From NCBI GenBank assembly GCA_023247255.1, contig JAHFGV010000010.1, positions 2,830 to 66,829 on the forward strand: 64,000 nt of DNA, read 5' to 3'. A program made the position numbers and the translations under genes. This document shows positions 9,742-49,590 of the stretch, in pieces (within the stretch, counting starts at the first letter, position 1; each line of letters begins with the position of its first letter). The notes beneath the pieces are model-generated. The model made no database searches and had not been told where the DNA came from. It saw only the letters and a program-made list of their open reading frames with translations. This DNA comes from Candidatus Omnitrophota bacterium (GTDB taxonomy: Bacteria > Omnitrophota > Gorgyraeia > Aquiviventales > Aquiviventaceae).

Positions 9742-10599
9742 TTAAACAGGCCGCACAGCCTGTGCGAGCATCGGGAAGAACAGCGACGACAACGCGTGCC
9801 GCTTCGAGTAGCGGTAAGCGAACTCGTTCACGTAGTGCTGCAAATACTTCGGAGAGACGGCGTGATACGTCCCGCTGAGGCTCCGCTTGAGTTGACTCCA
9901 AAAGCCCTCAATGGTGTTCGTATGCACCATGCCACGTACATATGTTCCCGACGAGTGGTTCACCGTACGGTGCGGGTAGCCCTTACGTGTTTTGCGATAG
10001 GTCTTGAATTCATCCGTCATCAAGGCTGTGCCTGGCTTAATATGCTGCTCGATAAAGGGACGCACGGTCTCCGCCGACAGGTTGCCAACAACACTCGCCG
10101 CAATACGTCCCTGCCGCTGGACAGCGCCCAACACGATGCTTTTCCCTGTGGCTCCGCGTCCTCGCTTGCCACGCGCCACACCGCCCACATAGGTATCATC
10201 CATTTCCACCGTCTTGGACAATGGATAGTTGGACTGTTTGAACAGCAAACGAATCTGTTTTGCCATCCGCCACGCCGTTTTATAGGTCACGCCAAGTTGT
10301 CGCTGAAGCTCCTTCGCCGACACGCCATTCTTCGAGTTGGCGAACAAGTAAATGGCATAGAACCAACTCTTGAGCGGCGTTTCCGATTTATGAAAGATTG
10401 TATCGGCCAACGGGTGCAGTTGGTAGCCGCACGATTGACACGCATAGCATTTGCGGTCGGTGACGCGATGAAACTTCGTGCGCGTGTGGCATGAAGGACA
10501 CCTGCTCACTTGTCCATACCGATGCTTGAAAATAGTTTCGAGGCACACATCATCCGTTGCGTACTGCTCGTTAAATTGTTTAATCGTGAACTTTTCCAT
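9742..10599 (-). CDS. IS1595-family (ISXO2-like) DDE transposase
   Basis: N-terminal zinc-ribbon (CPSCHTRTKFHRV...CYACQSCGYQ) followed by TIFHKSETPLKSWFYAIYLFANSKNGVSAKELQRQLGVTYKTAWRMAKQIR, characteristic of IS1595 transposases. Confidence 0.85.
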   Translation of the reverse strand: MEKFTIKQFNEQYATDDVCLETIFKHRYGQVSRCPSCHTRTKFHRVTDRKCYACQSCGYQLHPLADTIFHKSETPLKSWFYAIYLFANSKNGVSAKELQRQLGVTYKTAWRMAKQIRLLFKQSNYPLSKTVEMDDTYVGGVARGKRGRGATGKSIVLGAVQRQGRIAASVVGNLSAETVRPFIEQHIKPGTALMTDEFKTYRKTRKGYPHRTVNHSSGTYVRGMVHTNTIEGFWSQLKRSLSGTYHAVSPKYLQHYVNEFAYRYSKRHALSSLFFPMLAQAVRPV

Positions 10600-15508: not shown

Positions 15509-17363
15509 TCACTCAGGGTTTGGCGCTTCGGATTCCGCTTCTGACCCAGAGGTCTCTTGTTCATGTGGACTGGACTCTTGTGAAGATTCATTTTCAGGAG
15601 CAACATTATCAGGCTCTTCCGATGACACTGATTCTGATGAAGGAAGTTCGCTGGGCTCCGCATCCACTTCTGGAGCAGTCGCTTCGGTCGCAGTTTCTAG
15701 CTCCATCTCCGTGTCCTGTTCAGCACTCGATTCAGGTTCTGACCCTGCCATTTCGGAACTCCCTTGAGACTCTCCTAAGACCGTCCCAGCGTCAGACCCT
15801 GATGTCTCCTGCATGCCTGCAGCGGCTCCGCCTGTATCTGCGTCCGATTCTCCGAAGAGGGAGAATGATTCTGGGCTGTTGCCGTAGTCGTAATCGTTTT
15901 TCAATATCTCACTGGCTTGCCCCTCAGCGGTTGCTTCGGAGATTTGACCGCTCTCAACCTGCAGACCGAGTTCGATGAGACGCGGGTCGGACTCTAACGC
16001 CGCTTCAACGGCACTACCCGTCACGTCCCAGCTGCTCGCATCCGCATCTTGGCGATTCCCTATCCCGTCGCCATCGATGTCCGCATCGGCGGTGTTGGGC
16101 GTGCCATCGCCATCGATGTCCGCATCCACAAGATTCAACTGCCCATCGCCGTCGACGTCAGGATCCACGGCATTCAGTCGCCCATCGCCATCCACATCAG
16201 CATCTTGGACGTTGGGCGTGCCATCGCCATCGATGTCCGTATCCTGGGTGTTGAGCTTCCCATCTCCATCCACATCCATGTCTTGAGAGTTCACTTGGCC
16301 GTCGCCATCGACATCGGCATCGACTGTATTGGCCTTGCCGTCGCCATCGATGTCCGCATCCTGGCCATTGAGCGTGCCATCCCCATCGACATCGGGATCG
16401 ACCGTATTGGTGGCGCCATCCCCATCGACATCGGTATCCATAGAGTTGAGTTGCCCATCCCCATCGACATCGGCATCTTGGGCGTTCGCGGTGCCATCCC
16501 CATCAATGTCCTGGTCTTTGGCGTTCATGACCCGATCCCCGTCTACATCTAGGTCCTGGGCGTTGGGCGTACTGTCCCCGTCGGCATCCAGGTCTTGAGC
16601 ATTGGGCGTCCCATCCCCATCCCCATCGGTATCGGCGGCGTTGAGGGTTCCATCGCCGTCGATATCCGGATCCTTGATATTCGGAATCCCATCGTGGTCG
16701 GTGTCCGCCGTAGCATCTCCTGCGGTGAGCGCTTCGCCCCCTGGCGCATTCTCCATCCCATCCCCATCGACATCGAGATCGGACGTATTAGGCGTGCCGT
16801 CCCCATCACTATCGGCATCGGTTCTATTAGCCTGCCCGTCTCCATCGATATCCGCATCTTGGGCATTCAAGGTCCCGTCGCCATCTACGTCCAGATCGAG
16901 TGCGTTCGCGGTACCATCTCCATCCACATCGGTATCGGCGGCGTTCAACTGGCCATCGCCATCGATGTCTTTATCATCGGTGTTTTGAATCCCGTCTCCA
17001 TCCACATCGGTATCGGCGGCGTTCAACTGGCCATCGCCATCGATGTCTTTATCATCGGTGTTTTGAATCCCGTCTCCATCCACGTCGGTATCGGAGACGT
17101 TCAACTGGCCATCCCCATCGACATCGGGGTCGGCTGTGTTCGGGATGCCATCATGGTCGATATCGAGTGCCGCGGCTGCTGCGGGCGATTGGGCTTCACT
17201 GCTTGGGCTAAGATCAAGCGCTGCCGGGACCGCTATCTGAGCCGCTTCAGCGGTCTGATCATCCGCGGCCCACACCGAAGGACCAGCAATGAGAAGGGAA
17301 CCCAGACTCGCTGCGATGAGAGTCACTGCTAACCACCGATCCATTAATCGTCTACGATACATG
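15509..17363 (-). CDS. Secreted calcium-binding protein built of thrombospondin type 3-like repeats (DxDxDGxxN) with an acidic Ser/Glu-rich C-terminal tail
   Basis: Over 25 tandem DVDGDGxxNxxD repeats. Signal peptide LIAASLGSLLIAGPSVWA. Start ATG at 17363 is preceded by GGAGGTGG. A perfect 78-bp tandem duplication lies at 16919-17074. Confidence 0.8.
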
Positions 17364-17380
17364 TTCCACCTCCGTAGAAC

Positions 17381-17414
17381 AAAAAAACCCTTGCCATTGA
17401 AAGCAAGGGTTCGC
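17381..17414 (-). terminator. Intrinsic terminator / expression-platform hairpin (AACCCTTGC-TTTCAATG-GCAAGGGTT followed by TTTTTTT) 20 nt upstream of the RBS of the TSP3-repeat gene
   Basis: Read on the minus strand: a GC-rich 9-bp stem followed by a 7-T run. It is preceded by a second hairpin GATGCGCC-GTAA-GGCGCATC (17416-17435). Confidence 0.7.
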
Positions 17415-17433
17415 TGATGCGCCTTACGGCGCA

Positions 17434-17540
17434 TCTATCCGGTAACTGGCTGCCATCCCTAGCTTCCCGCTAGGTTGAAGGCCCTATAGCTTTGCGACCC
17501 ATTCTTTCGAATGGTGTGCCTTTTTCAGATCGATTGAGTT
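17434..17540 (-). ncRNA. Cyclic-di-GMP-I (GEMM) riboswitch aptamer
   Basis: Minus-strand sequence GGCACACCATTCGAAAGAATGGGTCGCAAAGC...CAGTTACCGGATAG closely matches the Vibrio cholerae Vc2 GEMM-I core GGCAAACCAUUCGAAAGAGUGGGACGCAAAGC...GGUUACCGAUGG. This includes the GAAA tetraloop hairpin and the ACGCAAAGC junction. A candidate sigma70 promoter (TTGACA-N18-TATTTT) lies at ~17575-17605 on the minus strand. Confidence 0.75.
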
Positions 17541-17932: not shown

Positions 17933-18865
17933 ATGGCTCGAGCTCCAAGAATCAACCTGGCTGGCGGACTATTCCATGTGACTCAACGGGGGAATAATCG
18001 CCAGCCCATTTTCTTAGATGATAAAGATCGGCGCGCTTTTCTTGAGCGTGTGGCTCGGTTCCGAGGACCTTTTAAATGTTCTGTGCATGCCTACTGTTTG
18101 ATGGATAATCACGTACACCTGCTTTTGGAGACTCAGGAGGCCAATCTTTCTGCTTTTGCCCAGCGATTGTTTGCCTCCTACACATTATGGTTCAACCGCA
18201 AGCACGAGCAGGTGGGACACGTTTTCCAGGGGCGGTTTAAATCGATTCTTGTAGAGAAGGATGCGTATTTGCTCGAGTTGTCACGATACATTCATCTCAA
18301 TCCAGTTAAGGCAAAACTTGTAGTGAAGCCAGAGGAATATCGTTGGTCAAGCATGCGCAGTTACCTGGGGATGGAAGGTGTCGAGAGCTGGGTTACCACA
18401 CGAGACGTACTGGCATACTTTACGGGTAGACGCCAGGAATATTTGGCATTTGTCTATGGCAGGATGGGGGTAGAGGACCCAGGATTTATAACTCGGGGCG
18501 ATTGCTTAGGTTCTCACGCGTTCATTGAAGAAGTTCAGACACAGTTCAGAAATGGAGAACATCAGAGGACGCAGGCTCTCGATAGGAAAACGGAGGATGC
18601 GGCCAAGTTAGCAAAGGTGAGTCGATTGTTAGGCATGGATGAGACGACGATGAGGAAGAAGCATGCGAAGGGTAGGGAGTCCGCTCGGGCGCGAGCCATG
18701 CTAGGATATGTGCTGCGCAGGACAACATCGATGACGCATGCAGAGATTGGGCGAGTCTTGGGGGGAGTGTCTGCGGCTGGCGTTGCCTCGCAAGCAGAGA
18801 AGGTGGCGCGCTTGCCAAAGTTACGAGACAAGGCAGACAGAATAATTAAAATAACAAATGCCTGA
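17933..18865 (+). CDS. Y1 HUH (IS200-like, Transposase_17 family) transposase fused to a C-terminal DnaA-C-like HTH domain
   Basis: HUH motif HVHLLLE and catalytic-Tyr region RYIHLNPVKAKLV...YRWSSMRSY. C-terminal MLGYVLRRTTSMTHAEIGRVLGGVSAAGVASQAEKV resembles the DnaA domain IV HTH. Confidence 0.75.
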   Translation: MARAPRINLAGGLFHVTQRGNNRQPIFLDDKDRRAFLERVARFRGPFKCSVHAYCLMDNHVHLLLETQEANLSAFAQRLFASYTLWFNRKHEQVGHVFQGRFKSILVEKDAYLLELSRYIHLNPVKAKLVVKPEEYRWSSMRSYLGMEGVESWVTTRDVLAYFTGRRQEYLAFVYGRMGVEDPGFITRGDCLGSHAFIEEVQTQFRNGEHQRTQALDRKTEDAAKLAKVSRLLGMDETTMRKKHAKGRESARARAMLGYVLRRTTSMTHAEIGRVLGGVSAAGVASQAEKVARLPKLRDKADRIIKITNA

Positions 18866-30545: not shown

Positions 30546-33500
30546 ATGCCGCAGGAGGTCAGGACGGTTGGCAAGAGCTCGGTAGGTTCTGGAGGGGCTG
30601 TGATCCTGAAAGACACGCTCAGGTTGGCATCAGAAAAGGGATCGGATTCTAGTCCCCAAAAAGGATTGACCGTTCCCAGACGCTGGACGCGCTCGACCGT
30701 CCATCCTTATGATGAAGTCACCTGGGAGCTTCGAGTTGCCTCCATCACGAATGAGAAAGGCGAGGTGGTGTTTGAACAATCCGATGTCGAGGTCCCCTCA
30801 TTCTGGTCTCAGCTGGCGACTAATGTCGTGGTATCCAAATACTTTCGCGGCCAATTGGGGACCGCCCAGCGGGAGCGCAGCGTCAAGCAACTCATCGGAC
30901 GGGTGTCCCAAACGATTGCCCGGTGGGGGCTCAAGGACGGATACTTCGCCGGCTCTGAAGACGCCGAGGCTTTTGAAGATGAGCTGACCTATCTTTTATT
31001 ACACCAGTATACCGCTTTCAACTCTCCCGTGTGGTTCAACGTCGGTGTGGAAAAAGACCGTTCCCCTCAATGCAGCGCGTGCTTCATCCTCTCGGTCGAG
31101 GACCATATGGAGTCTATCCTCGAATGGTACCGCAATGAGGGGATGATTTTCAAATACGGCTCCGGGGCCGGGCTCAACGTTTCTCCCATTCGCTCGTCTC
31201 GTGAGCGCCTCGGGGGTGGGGGCATACCCTCAGGCCCTGTCTCTTTCATGCGGGCAGCCGATGCCTCAGCCGGGGTGATCAAATCCGGTGGAAAAACCAG
31301 GCGCGCGGCAAAGATGGTAGTCCTCAACGCCGATCATCCGGACATCCAGACATTCATTCTCTGCAAATGGAAGGAAGAGGAAAAGGCGCACAAGCTGATC
31401 GATCTGGGCTATGACGCTTCCATCGATGGGGAGGCCTATACCTCGGTGTTCTTCCAGAATGCCAACAATTCGGTGCGCGTCACGGATGAGCTTATGCGTC
31501 GGGCGCTGGCCGATGAGGACTGGGAGCTTAAGGCGGTGACGAGTGGCGAGATCATCGAGCGCGTGAAGGCGAAAGATCTTTTACGGCTCATTGCTGAGGC
31601 GACCTGGCACTGCGGCGATCCGGGCATGCAGTTTGACACGACCATCAACGACTGGCACACCTGCCCGAACACCGGCCGGATCAATGCCAGTAATCCGTGT
31701 TTTGCAGGGGATGCCCTTGTCTATACAAACAAGGGCTTAATTCCATTCAAAGAGCTGCATGAACGTGTCCAATTAGACGAAACCTTCCAGGTCTTCACGC
31801 ACGATGCCACTCACCCCGAGCGGCCAGCTACGACCATCAGCGCCACAAAGCCCATTCGTGTGATGTGCACGGGGACCAACGACGTCTACCAGCTTCGGTT
31901 TTCAAACGGAGTCGAAGTCAAGGCGACCACCAATCACCGCTTCTTCACGAAGAACCGCGGGATGGTCGCGGCAGAAGAGTTGCAGCCAGCAGACGAGGTG
32001 ATGTTGCTCGATCAATCCGTCGAACTCCTGTCCGCCTCGCTGGAGATTGATCTTGACGATGCGGCAATCTTCGCCAGCGGCTGGGGGGGTCGCGACACCA
32101 AAGACTACCAGTCTGTTCAACTGCCTCGGGTATGGGTGACGCCACTTGCGGAGTACCTGGGCTATCTTGTGGGTGATGGCAATGTAAGCGAGGCCAGCGA
32201 TGCGGAACATCGCCTGAGCAGCGTGTCAGTCGTGTTCGGGAAAGCTGCGGAAGCAGACGAGTTGCTGCCGCGTTTTGAGTCGCTGTTCGCTGACATGAGC
32301 GTCACGCACACGCAGACGGTCACAATGCCCAACGGTACCGTCCAATTTCGAGTCAATCGCACGCCGGTGGCGCGGTTCTTGAAACAACTGGGTGTGCAGG
32401 AGTGTGAGGCTCATGAAAAACGGGTTCCACACACAATCTTTCAGACTCCCGCGCACATCATCGCCGCGTTTCTGCGCGGACTCTTTACTGCGGATGGATG
32501 CGTGTATGAGGGTAAGACCAGTCGCTATGTCGGGCTCGCCAGTTCATCACAAGAGCTCCTTCGCCAGGTCCAACAACTCCTATTCACTTTCGGTATCCAG
32601 AGCCGAATCTACGCCACACGAGGCAGGCACGAATGCTTTCCTTATCAGAGAAAAGACGGCGAACGAGTCCTCTCTACCGGCCGCCAGTTGTATGATTTAA
32701 GGATCGCCGGTACCGCGATCGCTCGGTTCAAGGAACACGTCGGATTTCTGACGACTGAAAAACAGGCAAGACTCAATCGAGTCATCGGAGGGTACCCCTT
32801 TCGAGAGCCAAGAGATAGTACTCGCTTGGTGGCTAGGGAGCTTCTTGGCGAAGAATTGACTTATAACCTCACCGAGCCCAAGAATCACAGCTATGTTGTG
32901 AATGGGTGTATCGTTGCTAACTGTAGTGAATACATGCACTTAGATAACTCGGCGTGTAACCTCGCAAGCATCAACCTGCTGAAATTCATCGATGACGAAG
33001 GGAATTTCCTGATCGAGCCGTTCAAGCACGCCGTGCGCGTCATGACCATCGCCCAGGACATCATCGTTGATAATTCCTCGTATCCGACGGAGAAAATCAC
33101 GCGCAATGCCAAGGACTACCGGGAACTCGGCTTGGGCTACGCAAACCTGGGCGCTTTGTTGATGGCTCAAGGGCTTGCGTATGATTCTGAGGAAGGGCGT
33201 GCCTGGGCCGGGGCGATTACAGCGCTTTTGTGCGGCCATGCCTATGAGGTTTCCGGAGAGATCGCCCAGCGACTGGGGCCCTATGCCGGTTTTTCGAAAA
33301 ACCGCGAACCGCAACTGCACGTCCTACGCAAACATCGCGCTCAAGTGGATAAGATCAACCCACGCCTGGTTCCCCAGCCGCTCTTGCAGGCTGCCACGCG
33401 CGTCTGGGATGAGACGATCCGCCTGGGTGAGCAGAATGGCGTGCGCAACTCTCAGGTCACGGTACTCGCTCCTACCGGGACGATCGCGTTTCTTATGGAT

Positions 33501-34601
33501 TGTGACACGACCGGGGTTGAACCCGACATCGCTCTCGTTAAATATAAACGGCTCGTCGGTGGGGGGATGCTCAAGATCGTCAACCAAACCGTTCCACGGG
33601 CGCTTAAAAAACTGGGATACGCGCCGCAGGAAGTGGAGGCCATTGTCCGTCACATCGATGAGAAAGAAACGATTGAAGGGGCTGCGGGTCTTAAGCCGGA
33701 GCATCTGAGGAATTTTGACTGCGCTTTTCGTCCGGTGAACGGGACGCGGTCCATCCATTACATGGGGCACATTCGAATGATGGCTGCTGCCCAGCCTTTC
33801 ATCAGCGGGGCGATCTCCAAAACCGTCAACCTCCCCCAAGAAGCAACGGTTGAGGATATCTGCCAGGCCTACATCGAAGCCTGGCGTTTGGGCCTTAAGG
33901 CGATCGCTATTTACCGCGACGGCTCCAAACGCGTGCAGCCGCTCTCAACCGCTAAGACCGACAAATCGAAAGCGGCCGATTCGGCTAAAACCCCCACAGG
34001 GGTTCCTTATCGTCGCAGACTTTCCGATGAGAGACAGTCGATCACCCACAAGTTTTCCATCGGGGGTCATGAAGGTTACTTGACGGTGGGTCTGTTCGAA
34101 GACGGTACACCTGGGGAAATCTTCATCGTCATGTCGAAGGAAGGATCCACCCTTTCCGGCGTGATGGACTGTCTTGCCACGACGGTTTCATTGGCTCTTC
34201 AATATGGCGTGCCGCTTCAAGTTTTAGTCACCAAATTCAGCCATGTTCGTTTTGAGCCCTCAGGGGTGACGAATAACAGAGACATTCGATTTGCCAAATC
34301 GGTCATCGACTATATCTTCCGGTGGATGGCGCTGAAGTTTCTTCCGGAGGAACAGGCGCAACCATTCAAGGTGAGTCACGTTCCTGGTTCACAGCCTGGG
34401 AGTGGCTCTGCATCCGCTCAATCCGCACAGGCAGCTTCGCCCGCAGGAAGCAACTATCCCAACCCGATGGAGCATCAAGAACGCCTGACCTTCGTCGCTC
34501 AAGCGGACGCCCCCGTTTGTTCTGACTGCGGCTCGCTGATGGTCAGAAACGGCAACTGCTACAAGTGCCTGAATTGCGGGAGTACATCGGGATGTTCGTG
34601 A
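30546..34601 (+). CDS. nrdJ: Adenosylcobalamin-dependent (class II) ribonucleotide reductase NrdJ, interrupted in-frame by a 408-aa intein
   Basis: Class II RNR motifs, C-terminal zinc ribbon (CSDCGSLMVRNGNCYKCLNCG), extein junction NASNP|CSEY reconstituting the NPC(G/S)E active-site motif. The intein runs from codon 385 to 792. Confidence 0.85.
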   Translation: MPQEVRTVGKSSVGSGGAVILKDTLRLASEKGSDSSPQKGLTVPRRWTRSTVHPYDEVTWELRVASITNEKGEVVFEQSDVEVPSFWSQLATNVVVSKYFRGQLGTAQRERSVKQLIGRVSQTIARWGLKDGYFAGSEDAEAFEDELTYLLLHQYTAFNSPVWFNVGVEKDRSPQCSACFILSVEDHMESILEWYRNEGMIFKYGSGAGLNVSPIRSSRERLGGGGIPSGPVSFMRAADASAGVIKSGGKTRRAAKMVVLNADHPDIQTFILCKWKEEEKAHKLIDLGYDASIDGEAYTSVFFQNANNSVRVTDELMRRALADEDWELKAVTSGEIIERVKAKDLLRLIAEATWHCGDPGMQFDTTINDWHTCPNTGRINASNPCFAGDALVYTNKGLIPFKELHERVQLDETFQVFTHDATHPERPATTISATKPIRVMCTGTNDVYQLRFSNGVEVKATTNHRFFTKNRGMVAAEELQPADEVMLLDQSVELLSASLEIDLDDAAIFASGWGGRDTKDYQSVQLPRVWVTPLAEYLGYLVGDGNVSEASDAEHRLSSVSVVFGKAAEADELLPRFESLFADMSVTHTQTVTMPNGTVQFRVNRTPVARFLKQLGVQECEAHEKRVPHTIFQTPAHIIAAFLRGLFTADGCVYEGKTSRYVGLASSSQELLRQVQQLLFTFGIQSRIYATRGRHECFPYQRKDGERVLSTGRQLYDLRIAGTAIARFKEHVGFLTTEKQARLNRVIGGYPFREPRDSTRLVARELLGEELTYNLTEPKNHSYVVNGCIVANCSEYMHLDNSACNLASINLLKFIDDEGNFLIEPFKHAVRVMTIAQDIIVDNSSYPTEKITRNAKDYRELGLGYANLGALLMAQGLAYDSEEGRAWAGAITALLCGHAYEVSGEIAQRLGPYAGFSKNREPQLHVLRKHRAQVDKINPRLVPQPLLQAATRVWDETIRLGEQNGVRNSQVTVLAPTGTIAFLMDCDTTGVEPDIALVKYKRLVGGGMLKIVNQTVPRALKKLGYAPQEVEAIVRHIDEKETIEGAAGLKPEHLRNFDCAFRPVNGTRSIHYMGHIRMMAAAQPFISGAISKTVNLPQEATVEDICQAYIEAWRLGLKAIAIYRDGSKRVQPLSTAKTDKSKAADSAKTPTGVPYRRRLSDERQSITHKFSIGGHEGYLTVGLFEDGTPGEIFIVMSKEGSTLSGVMDCLATTVSLALQYGVPLQVLVTKFSHVRFEPSGVTNNRDIRFAKSVIDYIFRWMALKFLPEEQAQPFKVSHVPGSQPGSGSASAQSAQAASPAGSNYPNPMEHQERLTFVAQADAPVCSDCGSLMVRNGNCYKCLNCGSTSGCS
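31698..32921 (+). other. Intein (Hint domain with LAGLIDADG homing-endonuclease core) inserted at the catalytic Cys of NrdJ
   Basis: N-terminal splice junction CFAGDALVYT (Cys1). Two LAGLIDADG-like motifs, LGYLVGDGNV and AAFLRGLFTADGCV. C-terminal junction ...VVNGCIVAN|CSEY. Confidence 0.75.
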
Positions 34602-34673: not shown

Positions 34674-35453
34674 ATGAAGCTCGACCTCGTGGAAAGTCTC
34701 GGCTCGCGCTACGACAGCCCACAGCAGATTGCACGAGTTGTGACCGAAGACTGGGCAGCTCGGAATCTCTACTGCGTGGCTTGCCCCTGCGACTTTCTCA
34801 CTCGATTACTAGCAAACACGCGGGCAGTTGATCTATTTTGCCCCCAATGTAAGCAGGTATTTCAATTGAAGAGCAGTCGAAACTGGAACCAGACTAAGAT
34901 AGTCGATGCTGCCTACGCGTCCATGATATCTGCTGTGCGAAGTAGTAACGTTCCTAATCTAGTGGTCATGCAGTATACGAACTTTTGGAAAGTCAGGAAT
35001 GCCCTTCTTGTTTCTTCGTTCTTTTTCACAGAAACCGTTATCGAGAAGCGCAAACCGCTCAGCTCAGTTGCCCAACGAGCAGGGTGGGTTGGTTGCAACA
35101 TCTTGCTTAAACAGATACCGGCTGATGGGAAATTGCGGCTCATCGCGGATGGAGTGGTTACCCCGACCCATCGGATTCGAAGCCAATTTAATCAGATCCG
35201 TCCTCTTTCAAGCTTGGCAGTAGGTCTCAGAGGGTGGACGCTCGATGTGCTTAATACTATCCGGCAGATTCAGAAGACAGAGTTTGCGCTTTCGGAAGTC
35301 TACTCCTTTGAAACGCAACTCGCCGCGGCCCATCCTGGTAACCGCAATGTCCGTGAGAAGATTCGTCAGCAACTCCAACGGTTACGCGATCTTGGGTTCT
35401 TGCAATTTGTCTCACCAGGACGTTACCGTGCGTCAATGAACGCGGATGGGTAG
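34674..35453 (+). CDS. DpnI-like (Dam-replacing family) methylation-dependent type IIM restriction endonuclease
   Basis: Blocks matching DpnI as recalled from memory: VVTEDWAARNLYC (ILTEDWVYRQSYC), AQRAGWVGCNI (ARRAGWIGCNI), REKIRQQLQRLRD (KEKIRQQLQILRD), GRYR (GKYR). Similar length (259 aa). CxxC pairs in the N-terminal domain. Confidence 0.6.
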   Translation: MKLDLVESLGSRYDSPQQIARVVTEDWAARNLYCVACPCDFLTRLLANTRAVDLFCPQCKQVFQLKSSRNWNQTKIVDAAYASMISAVRSSNVPNLVVMQYTNFWKVRNALLVSSFFFTETVIEKRKPLSSVAQRAGWVGCNILLKQIPADGKLRLIADGVVTPTHRIRSQFNQIRPLSSLAVGLRGWTLDVLNTIRQIQKTEFALSEVYSFETQLAAAHPGNRNVREKIRQQLQRLRDLGFLQFVSPGRYRASMNADG

Positions 35454-36720: not shown

Positions 36721-37575
36721 GTGCGGATTCTTATGTTTGAGGTAGAGGCTACCGATTTTTCCCTCCAGGCAAGTCTCACATCCGGTCAGAGTTTTCGATG
36801 GCAGGCGCATGCGGATTTTTGGTGCGGGGTCATTGGAAAGGCTGTGGTGAAAGTGCGTCAGCAAGAAGGGACATTGTCGTGTGAAACGTCGGATCCGGCC
36901 ATGGGCCCTTTAGAGGTGCGTCGTTATTTTGCTTTGGATCTCGATCTGGGTGCGATCCTTGAGTCGATCGACGTGGATATTCAGATTCACCAGGCCATTC
37001 TCAGCCATCGGGGACTGCGGGTGATGCGGCAAGACCCTTGGGAGACGTTGGCATCGTTCATCTGCGCTTCCTTTAACAACATTAAGCGCATTGAAGGGAT
37101 GATCGGACGGTTGTGTCAGTCCTATGGAGAGGCATTATCCTTCAATGGATTTTCAAGTTTTAGCTTTCCCCATCCCGAAAGGCTGGCCGGGATTTCTGAA
37201 CGAAGGTTGCGCGATCTGGGGCTTGGGTATCGCGCTTGCTATCTGAGGCATACCGCAAAACGAGTGGCGGATAGGAAACTGCCACTGGATCAATTGCAAC
37301 GGGTGGATTACGAGACGGTTCGATCGGCGCTGCTCGGTTGCGAGGGGGTAGGCGATAAGGTGGCCGATTGTGTGGCTTTGTTTGGATTTGAGAAGTACGA
37401 AGCTTTTCCGATCGACGTCTGGATGGAGCGGGCGATGCGTTATTATTTTAGGCATCGCAAAATAGGCTCGCGACAGTTGCATGCCTATGCGCGGCGTCAT
37501 TTTGGTTCCTTCGCCGGATATGCCCAGCAGTATCTGTACCATGACGTGAGAATGCGTCGGGGGCGCGATGCTTGA
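36721..37575 (+). CDS. ogg: 8-oxoguanine DNA glycosylase (Ogg family, HhH-GPD)
   Basis: N-terminal SGQSFRWQ motif and HhH-GPD segment GVGDKVADCVALFGFEKYEAFPIDVWMERA. Confidence 0.75.
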   Translation: MRILMFEVEATDFSLQASLTSGQSFRWQAHADFWCGVIGKAVVKVRQQEGTLSCETSDPAMGPLEVRRYFALDLDLGAILESIDVDIQIHQAILSHRGLRVMRQDPWETLASFICASFNNIKRIEGMIGRLCQSYGEALSFNGFSSFSFPHPERLAGISERRLRDLGLGYRACYLRHTAKRVADRKLPLDQLQRVDYETVRSALLGCEGVGDKVADCVALFGFEKYEAFPIDVWMERAMRYYFRHRKIGSRQLHAYARRHFGSFAGYAQQYLYHDVRMRRGRDA

Positions 37576-37639
37576 TACGGCAGAAAACCGGCTGATTAAA
37601 ATTTTTCTTTGTTGTTGCTTGACAGCTAAGAATAGGTAT

Positions 37640-37819
37640 GGTAGGAAATAGAGTAACATGAATATTCCTGTGATGTGGATGCAGTCCTCAGCCGCTGGCG
37701 CGATCTGTGGGGGATCGCGTTATGGGACTGAGGGCTGACGCGTCACCGTTGAGACAACTCAGGGGAATTCCAGAAGGGACTCCGACAGGGCGTCCCTATT
37801 TTTTTATTCGAGGATAACC
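37640..37819 (+). promoter_or_regulatory. ~180-nt leader with an internal 7-bp hairpin (CGCGATC-tgtgggg-GATCGCG) and a terminator-like hairpin (AGGGAC...GTCCCT + TATTTTTTTA) ending ~15 nt before the ATP-grasp operon start
   Basis: Read directly. It could be the ogg terminator or an attenuator/riboswitch expression platform for the downstream operon. No match to a riboswitch class I can recall. Confidence 0.35.
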
Positions 37820-38854
37820 ATGGCACTGCGGGTCGGACTGACGTATAACGTAAAAAGCGAACTCATTCTTAAACCCACTGATCCGCCGGATCTCAACGCG
37901 GAACTGGATCATGAGGATACCGTTAATCATATCGAGCAGGCCTTCCGCGAAGCGGGCTATGAAGTGGCGCGGATGGGTGGGGCACGGCGTCTGTTGGAGC
38001 ACATGGACCGGCCGAACGTGGACATCGTCTTCAACATTGCGGAAGGCTATGAAGGCAGAAATCGAGAATCCCAGGTGCCGATTCTGCTTGAGATGATGAA
38101 GATTCCTTTCGTAGGTGCCGACGGCTTGACCCTGGGGCTTACCTTGGACAAGGTGCTGACGAAAAAAGTGTTGATCGCTGAGGGGATCCCCACCCCACGC
38201 TATGCACAGGTGCAAGATCCCGACGCGCTTTGGCAGGTGGAGCTTGCGTATCCACTCATTGTCAAACTCCGCTGCGAGGGATCCAGCAAAGGTCTCAGCG
38301 AGCAGTCCTTGGTCAACGGTCCCGAAGACCTTCGTCGACAGGTGCGTTGGCTCATAGAGACCTACAAGGGGTCTTCGGTGTTCATAGAAGAGTTCATCGA
38401 AGGGCAGGAGTTTACAGTAGCCGTCATTGGCAATGATCCACCGGAAGCCTATCCTGTATGTCAAATAGCGCTCGATGGAAAGATTGACTTGGGGCGAAAG
38501 TTTTTTACGTGGGCATACCTGCGCTCAGGTGCCGATTACATTTGTCCCGCACGCATTCCCGATTCCCTCGCCAGGCGGATGCAGGAACTGTCCCTGCGCA
38601 CGTATCAGGCGGTGGATTGTCGTGATTTCGGGCGTGTCGATTTCCGCGTGGACAGTCATGCTCAGCCCTATGTCTTGGAGATCAATCCCCTGCCGTCTTT
38701 GTCGATGGAAGACGTGTTTAACATCATCGCGAAGGCTCGCGGTATCACCCACCACCAGATGATCACGAAGATTCTGGATGCAGCCCTGATGCGTCATGGA
38801 CTGAAGACCCAACACGAGGTGAACTCCCCATCAAATCCTACGCGATCGCTTTGA
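37820..38854 (+). CDS. D-alanine--D-alanine ligase-family ATP-grasp enzyme (paralogue 1)
   Basis: Ddl-like N-domain (VGLTYNVK...VDIVFNIAEGYEGRNRESQVPILLEMMKIPFVGADGLTLGLTLDKVLTKKVL) and ATP-grasp core (IVKLRCEGSSKGL, FIEEFIEGQEFTVAVIG, VLEINPLPSLS). Confidence 0.75.
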   Translation: MALRVGLTYNVKSELILKPTDPPDLNAELDHEDTVNHIEQAFREAGYEVARMGGARRLLEHMDRPNVDIVFNIAEGYEGRNRESQVPILLEMMKIPFVGADGLTLGLTLDKVLTKKVLIAEGIPTPRYAQVQDPDALWQVELAYPLIVKLRCEGSSKGLSEQSLVNGPEDLRRQVRWLIETYKGSSVFIEEFIEGQEFTVAVIGNDPPEAYPVCQIALDGKIDLGRKFFTWAYLRSGADYICPARIPDSLARRMQELSLRTYQAVDCRDFGRVDFRVDSHAQPYVLEINPLPSLSMEDVFNIIAKARGITHHQMITKILDAALMRHGLKTQHEVNSPSNPTRSL

Positions 38855-40254
38855 CCTATAATCTGAAGCGTGCCGGCTTTGCACAAGACGGATTGCCCGT
38901 CGACGTGGATTCCGAGTTCGACAGCCCGAAGACTATCGATAGGATCGTCCAAGGTCTCAAGGCAGGCGGGCATACCGTTTATCTTGTCGAGGCCACACAC
39001 GATTTTCCCCGTTGGTTTTTGACCCACCCAGTGGACATGGTTTTCAATATCGCCGAAGGCATCCACGGAGAGCATCGCGAATCGCAGGTGCCGGCAGTTC
39101 TGGAATCACTGGGTGTGCCTTTTACAGGGTCCAACAGCGTCACCCTCGCCCTTGCCTTGGATAAAGCCAAGACGAAACAGATTCTGGCTTCCGAAGGCAT
39201 TCCCACCCCTGCCTGGCAGTTGTTTCATTCCCCGACCGCCGCGTTGAATCCACAGCTTGAGTTTCCGCTGATCGTCAAACCCAATCGTGAAGGCTCGGCC
39301 AAAGGCATCTGGCGAGAGAGCGTTGTCGGGGATGAAGCCTCGCTGCGTTGCCAAATCGCCCACATCTACGATCGCTATCAGCAAGAGGTTTTGGTGGAAG
39401 AATTTATTCAGGGCCTTGAGTTGACCGTAGGGGTTCTGGGCGATACGGCGCTTCCGGTTCTGGAAATCGACTTCAGTCCATGTCGTGCCTCAGGAGAATA
39501 TTTCTATTCCTGGCGCATGAAAGAATTTCAAGGCAACGCCGAATTGGCTTTGAGCCCGGAGTTTTACTGTCCCGCTCGATTGGATCAAAAAACCGCGATT
39601 CGGATTCAGGAACTCACCCTGCGCGCCCACCACGCTTTAAGATGTCAGGATATTTCCAGAACCGATATCCGCCTGCGCTCCGATGGGATCCCCTTCGTTT
39701 TGGAAGTCAACCCTTTACCGGGTCTTGATCCGCTGGATAGCAACTTCCCCGTGATGGCGCGTGCGGCAGGATTCTCCCATGAGCGGCTCATCCAAAGGAT
39801 TGTGGATCTAGCCATATGTCGGTTTCAGAAAACGCGACTCCAGCAATCTGGCTGCATCAACCCCCCGGTTGTTCAATCAACGCCCTTTAAGGTATCCGCT
39901 AATGTCTGTGCAGAGGCTTGCTGTCTGCCGCCGGCAGAGGCATCCAGAGTCTTTCCGGTTTCAATAAGTCGCGCGCCCGCTTACCAACAACCGGTGCCAG
40001 GACTATTCAGTCGCGGCGCTTCACGGGATTCCACTGACCGAGGGGAAATTTCAGCGCCGAACATCCGATCTATAGAATCCGCCCCGCTGTCGATAGATGT
40101 AGAAGTACAGAGAATGAGCTCTGTCGTTCGAGGAGACGACAGGCAGCGGTGCATTCACATGGCCACACCCCAACTGGGGGTGTCGACGGTTTCCACCGAT
40201 TATCCTGAGGCCCAGACAACGTCGGGTGTGGCAAGAAGGGAGGATATATCGTGA
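38851..40254 (+). CDS. D-alanine--D-alanine ligase-family ATP-grasp enzyme (paralogue 2) with ~120-aa low-complexity C-terminal tail
   Basis: Same architecture as paralogue 1 (VDMVFNIAEGIHGEHRESQVPAVLESLGVPFTGS, IVKPNREGSAKGI, VLEVNPLPGLD). 4-bp ATGA overlap with both the upstream and downstream genes. Confidence 0.75.
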   Translation: MTYNLKRAGFAQDGLPVDVDSEFDSPKTIDRIVQGLKAGGHTVYLVEATHDFPRWFLTHPVDMVFNIAEGIHGEHRESQVPAVLESLGVPFTGSNSVTLALALDKAKTKQILASEGIPTPAWQLFHSPTAALNPQLEFPLIVKPNREGSAKGIWRESVVGDEASLRCQIAHIYDRYQQEVLVEEFIQGLELTVGVLGDTALPVLEIDFSPCRASGEYFYSWRMKEFQGNAELALSPEFYCPARLDQKTAIRIQELTLRAHHALRCQDISRTDIRLRSDGIPFVLEVNPLPGLDPLDSNFPVMARAAGFSHERLIQRIVDLAICRFQKTRLQQSGCINPPVVQSTPFKVSANVCAEACCLPPAEASRVFPVSISRAPAYQQPVPGLFSRGASRDSTDRGEISAPNIRSIESAPLSIDVEVQRMSSVVRGDDRQRCIHMATPQLGVSTVSTDYPEAQTTSGVARREDIS

Positions 40255-41429
40255 ACGGGGAAACTTATCGACGGATCCCACTCTGGAAGGACGTTCCCTT
40301 AGAGGAATGGGAGACCTACCGGTGGCAAATGGCCAACCGGGTTCAGACAGTGGATGTGTTGCGTCAGATCATTCAACTCACGCCATCCGAGGAGGCTGCG
40401 GTCACCCGCCGCTCGGGTCGTTTCATCATGGCTATTCCTCCGTACTGGGCAGCCCTGATGGATCCGGAAGATACAATGTGTCCCATTCGTCGACAGGCCG
40501 TTCCTGTAGAGGACGAATATCGCTTGAGCCCCAACGATTTGATTGATCCCTTGGCTGAGGATAGCCACATGCCGGTGCCGGGCTTGGTCCACCGTTATCC
40601 AGACCGCGTGCTGCTTCTGGTGGTTGAGGTGTGCGCGATGTACTGTCGCTTTTGTACGCGCAGTCGGGTAGTCGGCACAAGCGCTGGATTTAGCAAATCG
40701 GCCAACATTGATCAGGCCATTGAGTACATCAAAACCCATCGTAAGATCCGAGACGTGTTGATCTCCGGAGGGGATCCGCTGACGCTTTCTGATGAGCGGT
40801 TGGACGAGATCCTTGGGAAATTGCGGGCGATCCCTCATGTGGAATTTATCCGAATCGGCACGCGCAACCCGGTGACCTTACCCTATCGAATCACCGAGTC
40901 GTTCTGCCAGGTGGTTAAGAAGCACAAGCCGATTTGGATGAGCCTTCACTTCAACCATCCCAAAGAAGTGACCCCTCCCGTCAAAAGGGCGTGCAACCTA
41001 TTGGCGGATAGCGGCATTCCCTTGGGTTCCCAGACGGTTCTTTTGAAGGGAATCAACGACCGTCCTGCGATTATGAAGAAGTTGCTTCATGAGCTGTTGA
41101 AGATTCGCGTGCGCCCCTACTACATTTACCAGTGCGATCCGGTGAAAGGCACTGCGCACTTCCGCACTCCTGTATCGGCGGGAATACAGGTCATCGAGAA
41201 ACTGCGAGGACATACGACCGGTTATGCCGTGCCCACTTTCGTTATCGATGGCCCAGGTGGAGGCGGCAAGATCCCGATGATGCCCAACTATGTAGTCAGT
41301 GTGAAAGACGGCGTGTGGGTATTGCGTAACTATGCAGGCAAGCTATTTTCTTATAAAGAAGAGTCCAACGGCCACGGCGAGCGTCCACGCACGGCGGAGA
41401 TTGAACCGTCTTACGCGCTGAATCATTGA
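40251..41429 (+). CDS. KamA-family radical SAM 2,3-aminomutase (lysine 2,3-aminomutase-like)
   Basis: CxxxCxxC cluster CAMYCRFCTRS, KamA-type N-terminus (WKDVPLEEWETYRWQMANRV), PLP-binding Lys region, 392 aa. Confidence 0.8.
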   Translation: MNGETYRRIPLWKDVPLEEWETYRWQMANRVQTVDVLRQIIQLTPSEEAAVTRRSGRFIMAIPPYWAALMDPEDTMCPIRRQAVPVEDEYRLSPNDLIDPLAEDSHMPVPGLVHRYPDRVLLLVVEVCAMYCRFCTRSRVVGTSAGFSKSANIDQAIEYIKTHRKIRDVLISGGDPLTLSDERLDEILGKLRAIPHVEFIRIGTRNPVTLPYRITESFCQVVKKHKPIWMSLHFNHPKEVTPPVKRACNLLADSGIPLGSQTVLLKGINDRPAIMKKLLHELLKIRVRPYYIYQCDPVKGTAHFRTPVSAGIQVIEKLRGHTTGYAVPTFVIDGPGGGGKIPMMPNYVVSVKDGVWVLRNYAGKLFSYKEESNGHGERPRTAEIEPSYALNH

Positions 41430-41531
41430 GAGCCGTTAAGTAGTTGGGTGGATACTTACCGATGACGCCTCGCTCCCTCAATGCCTGGAGCGAGGCGTTT
41501 GGTTTCCAAAGAAGCAACGACAGGTAGTCGG

Positions 41532-42128
41532 ATGAAATTTACGCAGCTTAGAGGGACGATGTTTCGAGGAACTTTCTTTACCCGTTGGGTGATGGGACTG
41601 TGTCTTTTAAGCCTAAGCGGCTGCGGTCCCTTTAAGCGTGAAGAACTGGTCCAGGAGATTATCAAAGAAGACCCGGGATTTGCTCAGGTGTTGGACAAGC
41701 ATAAGGAACTGTCCAGCCGCATCGCAACCTATGAGCGTGAGTTGGAGTTGAAACGCAGTACGGTGGATCGGAAAATCGCCCAATTGCATCAAGAGCTGGC
41801 TGAGGCGGCGAAGGTAGCGAAGCAGAAAATATCTGAGGTGAAACGGTTGATTAACCCGGACCGAATCCGTCTCGAACAGGCGCTGTCGCTCGCAAGCAAA
41901 GAACTGAGAATCAAACAGACCCAGCGCTCGGAGCAAGGTCGATCCATTGCCAAATTGAGAAAGGTGGTGGAAGATAAAAACACTGCCTGGGATTCTAAAA
42001 CCAAGGCCCAGCAGAAAACCCAGTTGGAGGAGATGATTCAAGACTCCCAACGATTGGACAGGGAGATTACATCCCTCAGAGAACACATCAGGCGGCTCAA
42101 GCTCAAGCTCCTGTTGATCAAAATCTAA
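41532..42128 (+). CDS. Coiled-coil lipoprotein (lipobox LSLSGC)
   Basis: Signal peptide plus lipobox Cys, followed by a Glu/Lys/Leu-rich coiled coil. Start chosen at ATG 41532; the tracked ORF begins at 41481. Confidence 0.5.
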   Translation: MKFTQLRGTMFRGTFFTRWVMGLCLLSLSGCGPFKREELVQEIIKEDPGFAQVLDKHKELSSRIATYERELELKRSTVDRKIAQLHQELAEAAKVAKQKISEVKRLINPDRIRLEQALSLASKELRIKQTQRSEQGRSIAKLRKVVEDKNTAWDSKTKAQQKTQLEEMIQDSQRLDREITSLREHIRRLKLKLLLIKI

Positions 42129-48150: not shown

Positions 48151-49590
48151 ATGACGTATGAGCAAGCCGTAGCTTATTTGGATGCGTTGACTAATTATGA
48201 GCGGCACCATGACAGCGAAGCGATGCGCGCGGTTCGGCTGGAACGGATGCAGGATTTGTGCCGGCTCTTAGGAGATCCCCAACGCCGTTTCCGATCCGTT
48301 CTGATTGCAGGAACCAACGGCAAAGGGTCCATAGCCGCCATGCTTTACTCCATGCTCCGGCAGAGCTCGCTTCGTGTCGGACTCTACACGTCACCCCACC
48401 TCGAAGATTTGCGTGAGCGGATTCGGGTTTGGGAAAGACCCGCTCTCTCGGCTGCTGTGTCGGTGCGACCTGTTTTCGGCAATGATTGGATCAGCGAGCA
48501 GGATTTTGCCTCAATGATGGAGGAGATTCGCACAGCGGTTGAAACGATGTCCAGCCGTTCGACGGAGAATCGCCCCACTTATTTCGAGGTCCTCACGGCT
48601 TGTGCATTTCTATACTTCAGCCGGCGCCAGGTTTCAGTGGCCGTGCTTGAAGTCGGCATGGGAGGACGCTTAGATGCCACGAATGTCGTGGAACAAGCCA
48701 TATCCCTGATCGGTCCCATTGACGTTGACCATGCCGACGTCTTAGGAACCGATCGGGATACCATCGCCCAGCAAAAGGCGGGGATTATCAAACCCAATCA
48801 AACGGTCATCACCTCGCCCCAAGATGAATCCGTGCTCCAGGTTCTTCGCCACTCTTGTGAGTCCCACGGGGTTGCCCTGTTTGTCTGCGGCAAGGATCTG
48901 AACGTGGAAATCGAAAACCATAGTCCTCAAGGGTTGGAGGTAGCCATCTTGGGCATCCGTGGGCTGTATCCGGGAATTCACATTCCACTGATCGGACGTC
49001 ATCAGGCGCAGAACGCGGCTGTGGCGGTGGCGGCTCTGGAAGGGCTTTCGAGTTTGGGAATCCCCCATTCGATGGTCGAGCGGGGCCTGGCAACAGTCTA
49101 CTGGCCGGGGAGGCTAGAGCAGGTTCATCATAGACCGCTCGTGTTGATGGATGGTGCGCACAATTCTCATGCCGCCCGAGCGTTAGGGAAAACGCTGACC
49201 GAGCTGTGGAAAGGTAGGCGCATCCATTTACTGTTGGGGCTTTCTTCGGACAAAACCGTCAACGCTATCGGTGAGTTGCTGGGTCGTCTAGCGGTGAGTG
49301 TGACATGTACTCAGAGTGATCATCCGCGAGCGATGGCTGCGCCGGTGCTCGCCGAGCATCTGACGCCCTTCTGTCAGGATGTCAGCGTGATGGCTAATCC
49401 GATAGACGCCTACACCTATCTTTTGAACGCCCTCGAACCCACCGACATGATCGTGGTGACTGGATCGTTCTTTCTCATCGGGCAGCTTCGGGCATCGCTC
49501 AGACACGCCCAGAACATTTCGCCCTGGGTCGCTGCTACGGATACGGGTGCCGAGCGGTCCTCGATGCACAACACTCCCGTCTTTCCTTGA
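48151..49590 (+). CDS. folC: Bifunctional folylpolyglutamate synthase / dihydrofolate synthase FolC
   Basis: Mur-ligase P-loop IAGTNGKGS. FolC architecture. Confidence 0.85.
   Translation: MTYEQAVAYLDALTNYERHHDSEAMRAVRLERMQDLCRLLGDPQRRFRSVLIAGTNGKGSIAAMLYSMLRQSSLRVGLYTSPHLEDLRERIRVWERPALSAAVSVRPVFGNDWISEQDFASMMEEIRTAVETMSSRSTENRPTYFEVLTACAFLYFSRRQVSVAVLEVGMGGRLDATNVVEQAISLIGPIDVDHADVLGTDRDTIAQQKAGIIKPNQTVITSPQDESVLQVLRHSCESHGVALFVCGKDLNVEIENHSPQGLEVAILGIRGLYPGIHIPLIGRHQAQNAAVAVAALEGLSSLGIPHSMVERGLATVYWPGRLEQVHHRPLVLMDGAHNSHAARALGKTLTELWKGRRIHLLLGLSSDKTVNAIGELLGRLAVSVTCTQSDHPRAMAAPVLAEHLTPFCQDVSVMANPIDAYTYLLNALEPTDMIVVTGSFFLIGQLRASLRHAQNISPWVAATDTGAERSSMHNTPVFP

Follow-up and report, generated by a model that had tools for sequence, protein, structure and literature searches.

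What does a lysine 2,3-aminomutase do in an operon with two ligases that resemble D-alanine-D-alanine ligase (Ddl)? This question was raised by three adjacent genes in a 64,000-nucleotide (nt) stretch of DNA from a Candidatus Omnitrophota bacterium (contig JAHFGV010000010.1, positions 2,830 to 66,829 of the forward strand). The whole stretch is referred to here as the window, and coordinates count from its first letter. Gene A (37820-38854, + strand) encodes a Ddl-like ATP-grasp ligase of 344 amino acids (aa), as defined by its open reading frame (ORF) and Pfam match. Gene B (probably 38830-40254, + strand) encodes a paralogous Ddl-like ATP-grasp ligase, and gene K (40251-41429, + strand) encodes a KamA-family radical S-adenosylmethionine (SAM), pyridoxal phosphate (PLP)-dependent lysine 2,3-aminomutase of 392 aa that starts with GTG. 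The findings presented below made it reasonably likely that the three genes form a dedicated, regulated beta-lysine pathway, in which A and B ligate beta-lysine into a small amide-linked product.

The identities of the three gene families were straightforward. Pfam matches to Dala_Dala_lig_C had E values of 2.7e-33 for A and 3.7e-32 for B, and the two proteins were paralogues with 38-39% identity. K matched Radical_SAM plus LAM_C, and it passed the KamA subfamily model TIGR00238 with 354 bits (cut-off, 199 bits). Thus, the ORFs, the Pfam matches and TIGR00238 bore out the initial annotation of this DNA, which had described two paralogous Ddl-like ATP-grasp genes and a KamA gene. ENA metagenome contigs carried proteins identical to those of the window, and among homologues with a name, the closest came from Candidatus Omnitrophica metagenome-assembled genomes.

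The substrate of K was predicted from a comparison with the lysine 2,3-aminomutase (LAM) of C. subterminale (2A5H), whose residue roles are known from the published LAM structure. K and LAM aligned without gaps (458 bits), with K numbering equal to LAM numbering plus 3. The radical-SAM CxxxCxxC motif was represented in K by C128, C132 and C135 (CAMYCRFC), the carboxylate-binding arginine R134 of LAM by R137, and the PLP-binding lysine K337 of LAM by K340. The two aspartates that bind the epsilon-ammonium group in LAM (D293 and D330) corresponded to D296 (in YQCD) and D333 (in VIDGPGGGGK) of K. In glutamate 2,3-aminomutase, these two positions are occupied by Lys and Asn; both were Asp in K. 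The lysine-type residues and the Fe-S cysteines were kept in all 10 of the ligase-linked KamAs that were examined.

The curated models pointed in the same direction. The AblA equivalog TIGR03820 was the best-ranked curated model for K, which scored 508 bits and fell narrowly below the cut-off of 525 bits. K scored 454 bits with the glutamate 2,3-aminomutase model (cut-off, 650 bits), 403 bits with the arginine model (cut-off, 600 bits) and 243 bits with the EpmB equivalog TIGR03821 (cut-off, 369 bits); the window ORFs examined included no EpmA-like gene. Because the lysine-specific residues were kept and the AblA model ranked first, K should convert L-lysine to beta-lysine. Of the three beta-amino acids that had originally been proposed as products (beta-lysine, beta-arginine and beta-glutamate), the residues and the model ranking favored the first over the other two.

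In the case of A and B, the best curated models were Ddl models, and neither protein reached their thresholds: with NF002378, A scored 176.5 bits and B scored 195.1 bits against a cut-off of 243 bits. Scores with all other Ddl and Van models were far below the cut-offs, and NCBIfam had no equivalog for A, B or the related outside-phylum ligases A' and X, which are described below. The best solved relatives of A were Ddl enzymes at about 98 bits (98.5), and the sequence identity of A and B to Ddl and Van ligases was 22-31%. An AlphaFold model of A (predicted local distance difference test score, 76.5; predicted template-modelling score, 0.78) matched only Ddl and Van ligases, with template-modelling (TM) scores of about 0.65-0.70 and 19-26% identity.

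We compared individual residues with those of E. coli DdlB, the numbering of which agreed with the alignment to Y. pestis Ddl. Eight DdlB residues that bind ATP or Mg or act in catalysis (K97, K144, E180, E187, R255, D257, E270 and N272) were invariant in A and B, and they were also invariant in A' and X. Therefore, A, B, A' and X look catalytically competent. At the D-Ala site, the N-terminal GG.S.E15 motif of DdlB was replaced by P.D..AEFD in A and B, H63 was replaced by Glu in all of these ligases, and S281/L282 were replaced by Asp-Val in A and by Asp/Glu-Ser in B. S150 was retained; near K215 and Y216, residues could be aligned only ambiguously. Judged from these residues, A and B look like active ligases other than Ddl, and the extra acidic residues at their substrate site would suit an ammonium-bearing substrate such as beta-lysine.

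The genomic context of A and B was also unlike that of a cell-wall ligase, as no mur or fts gene was present among the window ORFs examined and no cell-wall context was seen in about 60 related loci. The initial annotation had argued that A and B are not cell-wall Ddl, and it was supported by the scores below the Ddl cut-offs, the replaced D-Ala residues and this missing mur/fts context. The window does carry a gene with a Mur-ligase domain at 48151-49590, which was read as FolC-type because it had a FOL3_C match.

A library of representatives clustered at 50% identity indicated how large the group around A might be. In this library, 881 clusters matched A at E<=1e-30, and the best score of a solved Ddl (98.5 bits), rescaled to the same library, corresponded to an E value of about 1e-23. 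Thus, the clade was closer to A than any solved Ddl was. Many of the top library matches were proteins of 600-730 aa that contained two tandem Ddl-like domains. The database names of the family members, "D-alanine-D-alanine ligase" or "ATP-grasp domain-containing protein," were uninformative, and annotation pipelines gave the name "D-alanine--D-alanine ligase" to homologues of A and B as well.

Gene order provided evidence that the ligases and the aminomutase work together. When genomes were scanned with the A-family alignment, 55 loci were returned, and the order of genes in these loci was determined by tblastn. The order A-B-K was found in 33 Omnitrophota loci, with A identity as low as 52%, and six further loci had the order A-K, without B. 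A orthologues across Omnitrophota were 50-80% identical; in the close clade, identities were 64-77% for A, 64-73% for B and 80-85% for K. The flanking genes turned over fully between clades while A-B-K persisted, and it was only in the closest clade that dCTP deaminase and OGG genes were located upstream and PabB downstream. Conservation of the neighborhood across genomes had been suggested as a check on the initial annotation; A-B-K persisted in the 33 loci despite the turnover of the flanks, and the linkage of KamA to a ligase extended beyond the phylum. Several of the loci (L008, L011, L013, L015, L016 and others), in which A was 64-77% identical and the operon and leader were the same, carried the public label "uncultured Planctomycetales"; they probably belong to Omnitrophota bins whose taxonomy was assigned automatically.

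Related modules were found outside Omnitrophota. In a Pirellulales locus and in Desulfobacterales loci, KamA was followed by A', which was 32-36% identical to A, and then by X, a Ddl-like ligase that was more distant from A than A' was. These modules included a GNAT, which was encoded separately, was part of a fusion with X (L050 and L057) or was joined to a histone-deacetylase-family domain. In the sister clusters, the GNATs did not match the AblB model and gave weak RimI-type matches only. In addition, an Elusimicrobiota locus contained an A-like gene and KamA within 4 kb. The module was widespread, with members in Omnitrophota, Desulfobacterota, Planctomycetota and Elusimicrobiota. The earlier statement that the aminomutase lacks an EpmA or GNAT partner was correct within Omnitrophota, where no GNAT was located in or beside the operon and none was found among the window ORFs examined; it did not extend to the modules outside the phylum, to which a GNAT belongs.

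Natural fusions tied the components more closely together. Six clusters of KamA-A' fusions were identified (P0485, P0489, P0490, P0498, P0502 and P0507; 746-826 aa), one of which was named "KamA family radical SAM protein [Desulfoferrobacter sp.]." According to blastp, all six contained a full KamA part that was 50-55% identical to K, and the identity of their ligase parts to A and B was 31-37%. All six fusions had the Fe-S motif and the second lysine-binding aspartate, and five had the YQCD aspartate. Didomain ligases of a first type were A'-X fusions, and the three contexts that we read (L066/L067, L068 and L189) all had the order KamA-(A'-X)-GNAT; in L066, the control genes were a sigma-54 activator with a hybrid kinase. 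A fused A'-X ligase was also named in Spirochaetota and Gammaproteobacteria records, and two A'-X-GNAT triple fusions of 834-944 aa were found (P0448 and P0467). Thus, a fusion was seen for every neighboring pair of the module. Didomain ligases of a second type consisted of two domains of the A superclade. In two of three contexts (L058, 8001-11432; L065, 676-3811), these ligases had a Peptidase_S58 gene directly downstream and KamA was absent. The Peptidase_S58 family includes the DmpA/BapA D- and beta-aminopeptidases, and the type-2 didomain ligase and its S58 neighbor may be a synthesis/degradation pair for an unusual peptide.

The gene order that was kept despite flank turnover, its recurrence across phyla and the fusions of every neighboring pair together make up the best contextual support that can be had short of an experiment, and they indicate that the product of KamA is a substrate of the A-type ligase. 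In the pathway that we propose, K would convert L-lysine to beta-lysine. A would be a Ddl-derived carboxylate-amine ligase that has kept the acyl-phosphate chemistry and has a remodelled, more acidic substrate site; as the ligase that was always linked to KamA and that has relatives fused to KamA, it would be the primary beta-lysine ligase and would activate a carboxylate with ATP and form an amide bond involving beta-lysine. B, or X in other lineages, would carry out a second ligation or serve as an obligate partner of A, such that A and B together would join beta-lysine to one or two partner molecules. Outside Omnitrophota, the GNAT would then acetylate a free amine. The product would most likely be a small cytoplasmic beta-lysine peptide, ranging from a dipeptide or tripeptide to a short oligomer. 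Transcription would be gated by a leader in which a structured RNA and a small ORF precede an intrinsic terminator, such that the product would be made on demand. That A and B use beta-lysine, in which order the steps take place and how attenuation works are what we infer from these patterns. A small-peptide product was favored because the ligases were Ddl-like and not RimK-like, because of the tailoring by GNATs and the S58 partner of the related ligases, which suggests small peptides with an unusual N-terminal residue, and because expression appeared to be conditional. The suggestion in the initial annotation that the aminomutase feeds the two Ddl-like ligases, in a pathway that is neither that of EpmA nor that of AblB, was in line with the synteny, the fusions and the lysine-type residues.

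The gap of 245 nt before A contained the conserved leader. It began with a promoter-like element at 37619-37647 (+ strand; TTGACA, 17 nt, TAGGAA), which is predicted to function as a promoter. In relatives, the -10 element was TACGAA with an upstream TG, and the position and sequence of the promoter were kept in at least 21 leaders. A simple sigma-70 scanner did not call this promoter because its -10 hexamer ends in a base other than T. The promoter-like element was followed by a small ORF of 26 codons (MNIPVMWMQSSAAGAICGGSRYGTEG; 37658-37738, + strand), which was predicted from conservation. Of the 21 leaders aligned, 20 had an intact small ORF of 24-26 codons; its ATG was conserved, changes in N-terminal length were in frame, and the peptides followed the pattern V-M-x-[IV]-[QR]-S-x4-A-[IV]-C-G-G-[SP]-R.

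The small ORF overlapped a structured RNA at 37671-37745 (+ strand), in which the RNAalifold consensus contained the helices P1, P2a and P2b, plus a hairpin (P3) whose conserved loop reads CUGYGGYGG. The stop codon of the small ORF was located inside the 3' strand of P2b. In the consensus structure of 21 leaders, 93.9% of the cells were paired, a level that none of 500 column shuffles reached. The shuffles gave 87.2% and slid controls about 40%; both sides had changed in 13 pairs. The leader of the window folded at -70 kcal/mol (z, -4.8). Downstream of the helices was a conserved UUGAGACAACUCAG box that forms a small hairpin in the window (37749-37762, + strand). This GUUGAnACAAC box, which reads GUUGAGACAAC in the window leader, was conserved in the high-GC clade.

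The last element of the leader was an intrinsic-terminator-like hairpin (GGGACUC...GUCCC) followed by U7 at 37775-37805 (+ strand), 15 nt before the start of A. A terminator was present upstream of A in every clade examined; its helix was 97% paired in 21 sequences and was present in the minimum-energy fold. A simple terminator scanner with a loop-length limit did not call it. Low-GC Omnitrophota lacked the helix and small-ORF domain; before A, low-GC clades had UUGA(A/G)AAAA at the place equivalent to the GUUGAnACAAC box, plus a promoter-like box and a terminator. A covariance model of the leader gave one match per locus, always directly upstream of A. For the leader, Rfam 15 gave no family at gathering score in a search of the whole window, and a search of 37500-37900 at E<=10 returned a spurious 13.8-bit match only. 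The P3-loop pattern GATCTGYGGYGGATCGCG was searched for in metagenomes, and true leaders accounted for 2 of 80 loci among the matches listed; the matches were mostly due to chance and were uninformative on a wider regulon. A second upstream ORF, running from the UUGA box to a TGATG overlap with A, was rejected because it was inconsistent between loci. Taken as a whole, the architecture of the leader suggests that the operon is controlled by transcription attenuation, and the leader is a candidate for a new attenuator or riboswitch.

The junctions between the genes were tight, as the initial annotation had claimed, although the overlaps that it had reported as ATGA read otherwise. The B/K junction (tcGTGAac) was a 4-nt GTGA overlap. 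The A/B junction, when B is started at its first canonical start codon (TTG, 38851), read cTTTGAcc, with a 4-nt TTGA overlap that placed the TTG start over the TGA stop; the ORF from this TTG (38851-40254) was 467 aa with a core that extended to about 39855. The TTG was doubted as the start of B because the frame upstream of it was open for 43 codons and encoded the conserved first strand of the fold (PIKSYAIALTYN). In high-GC relatives, most loci had no ATG, GTG or TTG upstream of the LTYN motif of B. What was conserved there was an ATC that followed a GAGG Shine-Dalgarno-like box, at 38830 in the window and at the equivalent position in L004-L027. In low-GC relatives, B started with an ATG located four codons ahead of LTYN (six in L038). 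Based on these alignments, the true start of B is probably the AUC at 38830 and TTG is unlikely; if B begins at this ATC, then A and B overlap by 25 nt.

B also carried a C-terminal tail, which had been described as disordered and 120 aa long. A low-complexity tail was indeed present (about 130 aa, approximately 39856-40251), and it did not prove to be a conserved feature, as homologues were mostly 340-400 aa and covered 62-75% of the query. A short (L/H/Q)PQEPS-like motif was frequent in the variable tails of some B homologues (P0123, P0133, P0136, P0148, P0173 and P0195) and was not seen in the tail of the window's own B. This motif may be a short linear motif or a translated conserved nucleotide element between B and K.

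Downstream of K, a terminator-like 13-bp hairpin followed by UUUGGUUU was located at 41464-41507 (+ strand; the surrounding 91-nt stretch folded at -33.8 kcal/mol with a z of -3.2), and it probably marks the end of the operon. This hairpin separates K from gene H (41559-42128, + strand), which encodes a coiled-coil lipoprotein with an LSLSGC lipobox and whose membership in the system is uncertain. H had no Pfam or NCBIfam family match. A lipoprotein homologous to H followed K in the close clade, in L027 (7356-7919) and in L038 (7021-7584), that is, in three divergent clades. A role for H as an analogue of Braun lipoprotein was rejected because the C-terminal residue was not conserved. Other neighbors were specific to particular clades. 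An EF-G-like gene and a YchF-C-domain gene were found downstream of K in L028, L030, L031, L032 and L037, and purH was downstream in the clades with these two genes. A small protein with a mechanosensitive-channel transmembrane helix was encoded upstream in L025, L027, L036 and L038, and an MgtE_N/CBS protein and Nramp were encoded upstream in the A-K clade.

Several observations weighed against a beta-lysine pathway that leads to a small product. The substrate of A and B was assigned from context, in a ligase clade that has no characterized member. Within the close clade, A, B and K were conserved at the level of dCTP deaminase and above PabB or OGG, and such housekeeping-level conservation would also fit the modification of an essential macromolecule. 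In Omnitrophota, the operon lacked a GNAT, a transporter and a peptidase, any of which would have hinted at a free metabolite. Groundwater and aquifer metagenomes were the source of the closest relatives, and low osmolyte demand is expected there. When the DNA of the window and the fetched loci was searched with E. coli DdlB by tblastn, genes of the A/B type were the only ones found, and no canonical ddl was detected. The Ddl orthologue K01921 was reported in 176 of 176 complete Omnitrophota genomes, and the supplement of the Omnitrophota preprint made no mention of K01921. This count may include A or B because homologues of A and B are already named Ddl.

As for the role of the product, a compatible or charge-balancing solute was our leading guess, and we offer it tentatively as a possibility that is more doubtful than not. 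It was suggested by analogy with N-epsilon-acetyl-beta-lysine and N-acetylglutaminylglutamine amide (NAGGN) and by the mechanosensitive-channel-like neighbor in one clade. It was weakened by the groundwater origin of the relatives and by the lack of a GNAT in the Omnitrophota operon.

Among the alternatives to a small beta-lysine peptide, the one that survived best was that A and B attach beta-lysine to a macromolecule, either in an EpmA-independent beta-lysylation of elongation factor P (EF-P) or another translation factor or in the modification of a peptidoglycan stem peptide or precursor. Within the phylum, A, B and K were conserved at housekeeping level, which would fit such a role, as would the EF-G-like and YchF-C-domain genes directly 3' of K in five loci and the conserved coiled-coil lipoprotein after K in three clades. 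Furthermore, a full peptidoglycan pathway has been reported for Omnitrophota, and RimK, LysX and the Enterococcus D-aspartate ligase are ATP-grasp enzymes that modify macromolecules. However, these translation- and envelope-type neighbors varied by clade, and in sequence and fold A and B were nearest to Ddl, which acts on free amino acids, and not to the RimK, LysX or TTL clades. K was of the LAM/AblA type and not the EpmB type. An attenuator, or the sigma-54 activator and hybrid kinase of L066, would be unusual for a constitutive modification, and the GNATs and S58 aminopeptidase of the sister systems are typical of the tailoring and turnover of small molecules. We considered macromolecule modification unlikely.

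A very improbable alternative was a system resembling those for peptides that ribosomes synthesize and that are modified after translation (RiPPs), in which the 24- to 26-aa leader peptide would be the substrate or carrier for beta-lysine ligation. A conserved small ORF that directly precedes a pair of ATP-grasp genes and a radical-SAM gene invites this idea, and PGM1 (pheganomycin) and the action of LysX on LysW provide precedents. However, the small ORF was found in the high-GC clade only and was missing from low-GC Omnitrophota and from all of the clusters outside the phylum, although these carry the same enzymes. Because the small ORF was confined to one clade, it would be a regulator rather than a ligase substrate. 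It also overlapped covarying helices, with a terminator next to them, and in L012 the small ORF was broken and the RNA helices were kept. Moreover, K retained the residues that bind free lysine.

It was even harder to accept that A, B or both are simply the cell-wall D-Ala-D-Ala ligase of the organism and that KamA is an unrelated neighbor. The Dala_Dala_lig_C matches, the Ddl models as best NCBIfam matches, the name D-alanine--D-alanine ligase given to homologues by several sources and the failure to find another ddl in the 64-kb window or the fetched loci all fit with this view. It is opposed by scores below every curated Ddl and Van cut-off, by the loss of E15, H63, S281 and L282 in loci with no mur/fts context, and by the 881 clusters that were nearer to A than any solved Ddl was (rescaled E). 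The strict linkage to KamA across phyla, the KamA-ligase fusions and the terminator-containing leader before A are likewise not what an ordinary ddl would predict. Finally, the idea that K catalyzes the first step of lysine fermentation and that the ligases are unrelated was barely credible: LAM-type KamA does start this pathway in Clostridium, Fusobacterium and Porphyromonas, and Omnitrophota have been described as fermentative, but nothing similar to kamDE, kdd, kce or kal was found among the neighbors in about 60 annotated loci, and the ligase linkage and fusions argue for an anabolic use.

The dedicated beta-lysine pathway that we favor would be new as a combination. Our literature search found no description of a cluster of KamA and Ddl-like ligases, in agreement with the original observation that the gene combination matched no characterized pathway. 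The components are each of known kinds; what is undescribed is their combination, together with the ligase clade and the leader. Beta-lysine has three well-established fates: it is N-acetylated to give an osmolyte, it is attached to EF-P, or it is used in antibiotics made by nonribosomal peptide synthetases or in fermentation. The module would add ATP-grasp ligation as a fourth fate. For a purely computational case, the gene fusions make this assignment unusually firm. The results also point to a large clade that is wrongly annotated as "D-alanine--D-alanine ligase," the members of which may be counted as ddl in automated calls of the peptidoglycan pathway. Three or four genes would provide a route to a new beta-amino-acid metabolite, and the ligand of the leader could reveal what triggers the pathway in a phylum with almost no cultured members. 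A bolder version, to which we gave a limited chance, is that a new class of beta-lysine molecule is essential in Omnitrophota, arising from EpmA-independent ATP-grasp beta-lysylation of a macromolecule (EF-P or peptidoglycan) or as a new abundant peptide cofactor or solute, and that it is governed by a new metabolite- or ribosome-sensing leader in which a structured RNA is combined with an arrest-type small ORF.

Other features of the window were recorded as well. A c-di-GMP-I-GGC riboswitch aptamer (RF03167; 17437-17529, - strand) scored 60 bits against a gathering score of 59 and was located upstream of a 641-aa ORF (15509-17434, - strand) that had no Pfam match. A ribonucleotide reductase gene (30546-34601, + strand; 1351 aa) contained an intein with a LAGLIDADG homing-endonuclease domain, as indicated by Pfam, and a gene for a DpnI-family methyl-directed restriction endonuclease (34674-35453, + strand) was located between the reductase and dCTP deaminase genes. 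An IS1595-family gene (9742-10599, - strand) and an IS200-like Y1 transposase gene (17933-18865, + strand) were both far from the operon.

Among known systems, the AblA/AblB pathway of methanogens, like KamA/YodP of B. subtilis, combines a LAM-type aminomutase with an adjacent enzyme that derivatizes beta-lysine, and a GNAT was also carried by the sister clusters outside Omnitrophota. Unlike AblA/AblB, the Omnitrophota operon has no acetyltransferase; in its place are two ATP-grasp ligases that would form amide bonds at the cost of ATP. The ligases share with Ddl and Van enzymes the three-domain ATP-grasp fold (TM score, about 0.7) and the same ATP, Mg and catalytic residues, and presumably the chemistry in which an acyl-phosphate is attacked by an amine. 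They differ from Ddl and Van enzymes in being linked or fused to KamA, in occurring as pairs of paralogues or as didomain proteins, and in lacking a cell-wall context. EpmA/EpmB, the system for beta-lysylation of EF-P, resembles the module in that a KamA-family enzyme provides beta-lysine to an ATP-dependent ligase. In contrast to that system, K is not of the EpmB type, the ligase is an ATP-grasp enzyme and not a class II aminoacyl-tRNA synthetase paralogue, and no EpmA was seen in the window.

In the Ngg/AsnO system for NAGGN, a Ddl-like ATP-grasp peptide ligase and a GNAT make an N-acetylated small peptide. In their organization, the X-GNAT and A'-X-GNAT fusions mirror its logic. The module differs in its domain order (ATP-grasp, then GNAT), in its amino-acid input from an aminomutase, in having no AsnO-like gene that we could see, and in the absence of a GNAT from its Omnitrophota version. 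Lastly, the leader resembles trpL, tnaC, speFL and riboswitch-terminator leaders, as a short conserved ORF lies over conserved RNA helices, with an intrinsic terminator between them and the first structural gene. Unlike these leaders, it has no run of regulatory codons for a single amino acid, no evident anti-terminator and no Rfam match, and its parts differ in distribution: the small ORF and helices belong to one clade only, and the UUGA box and the terminator occur generally.

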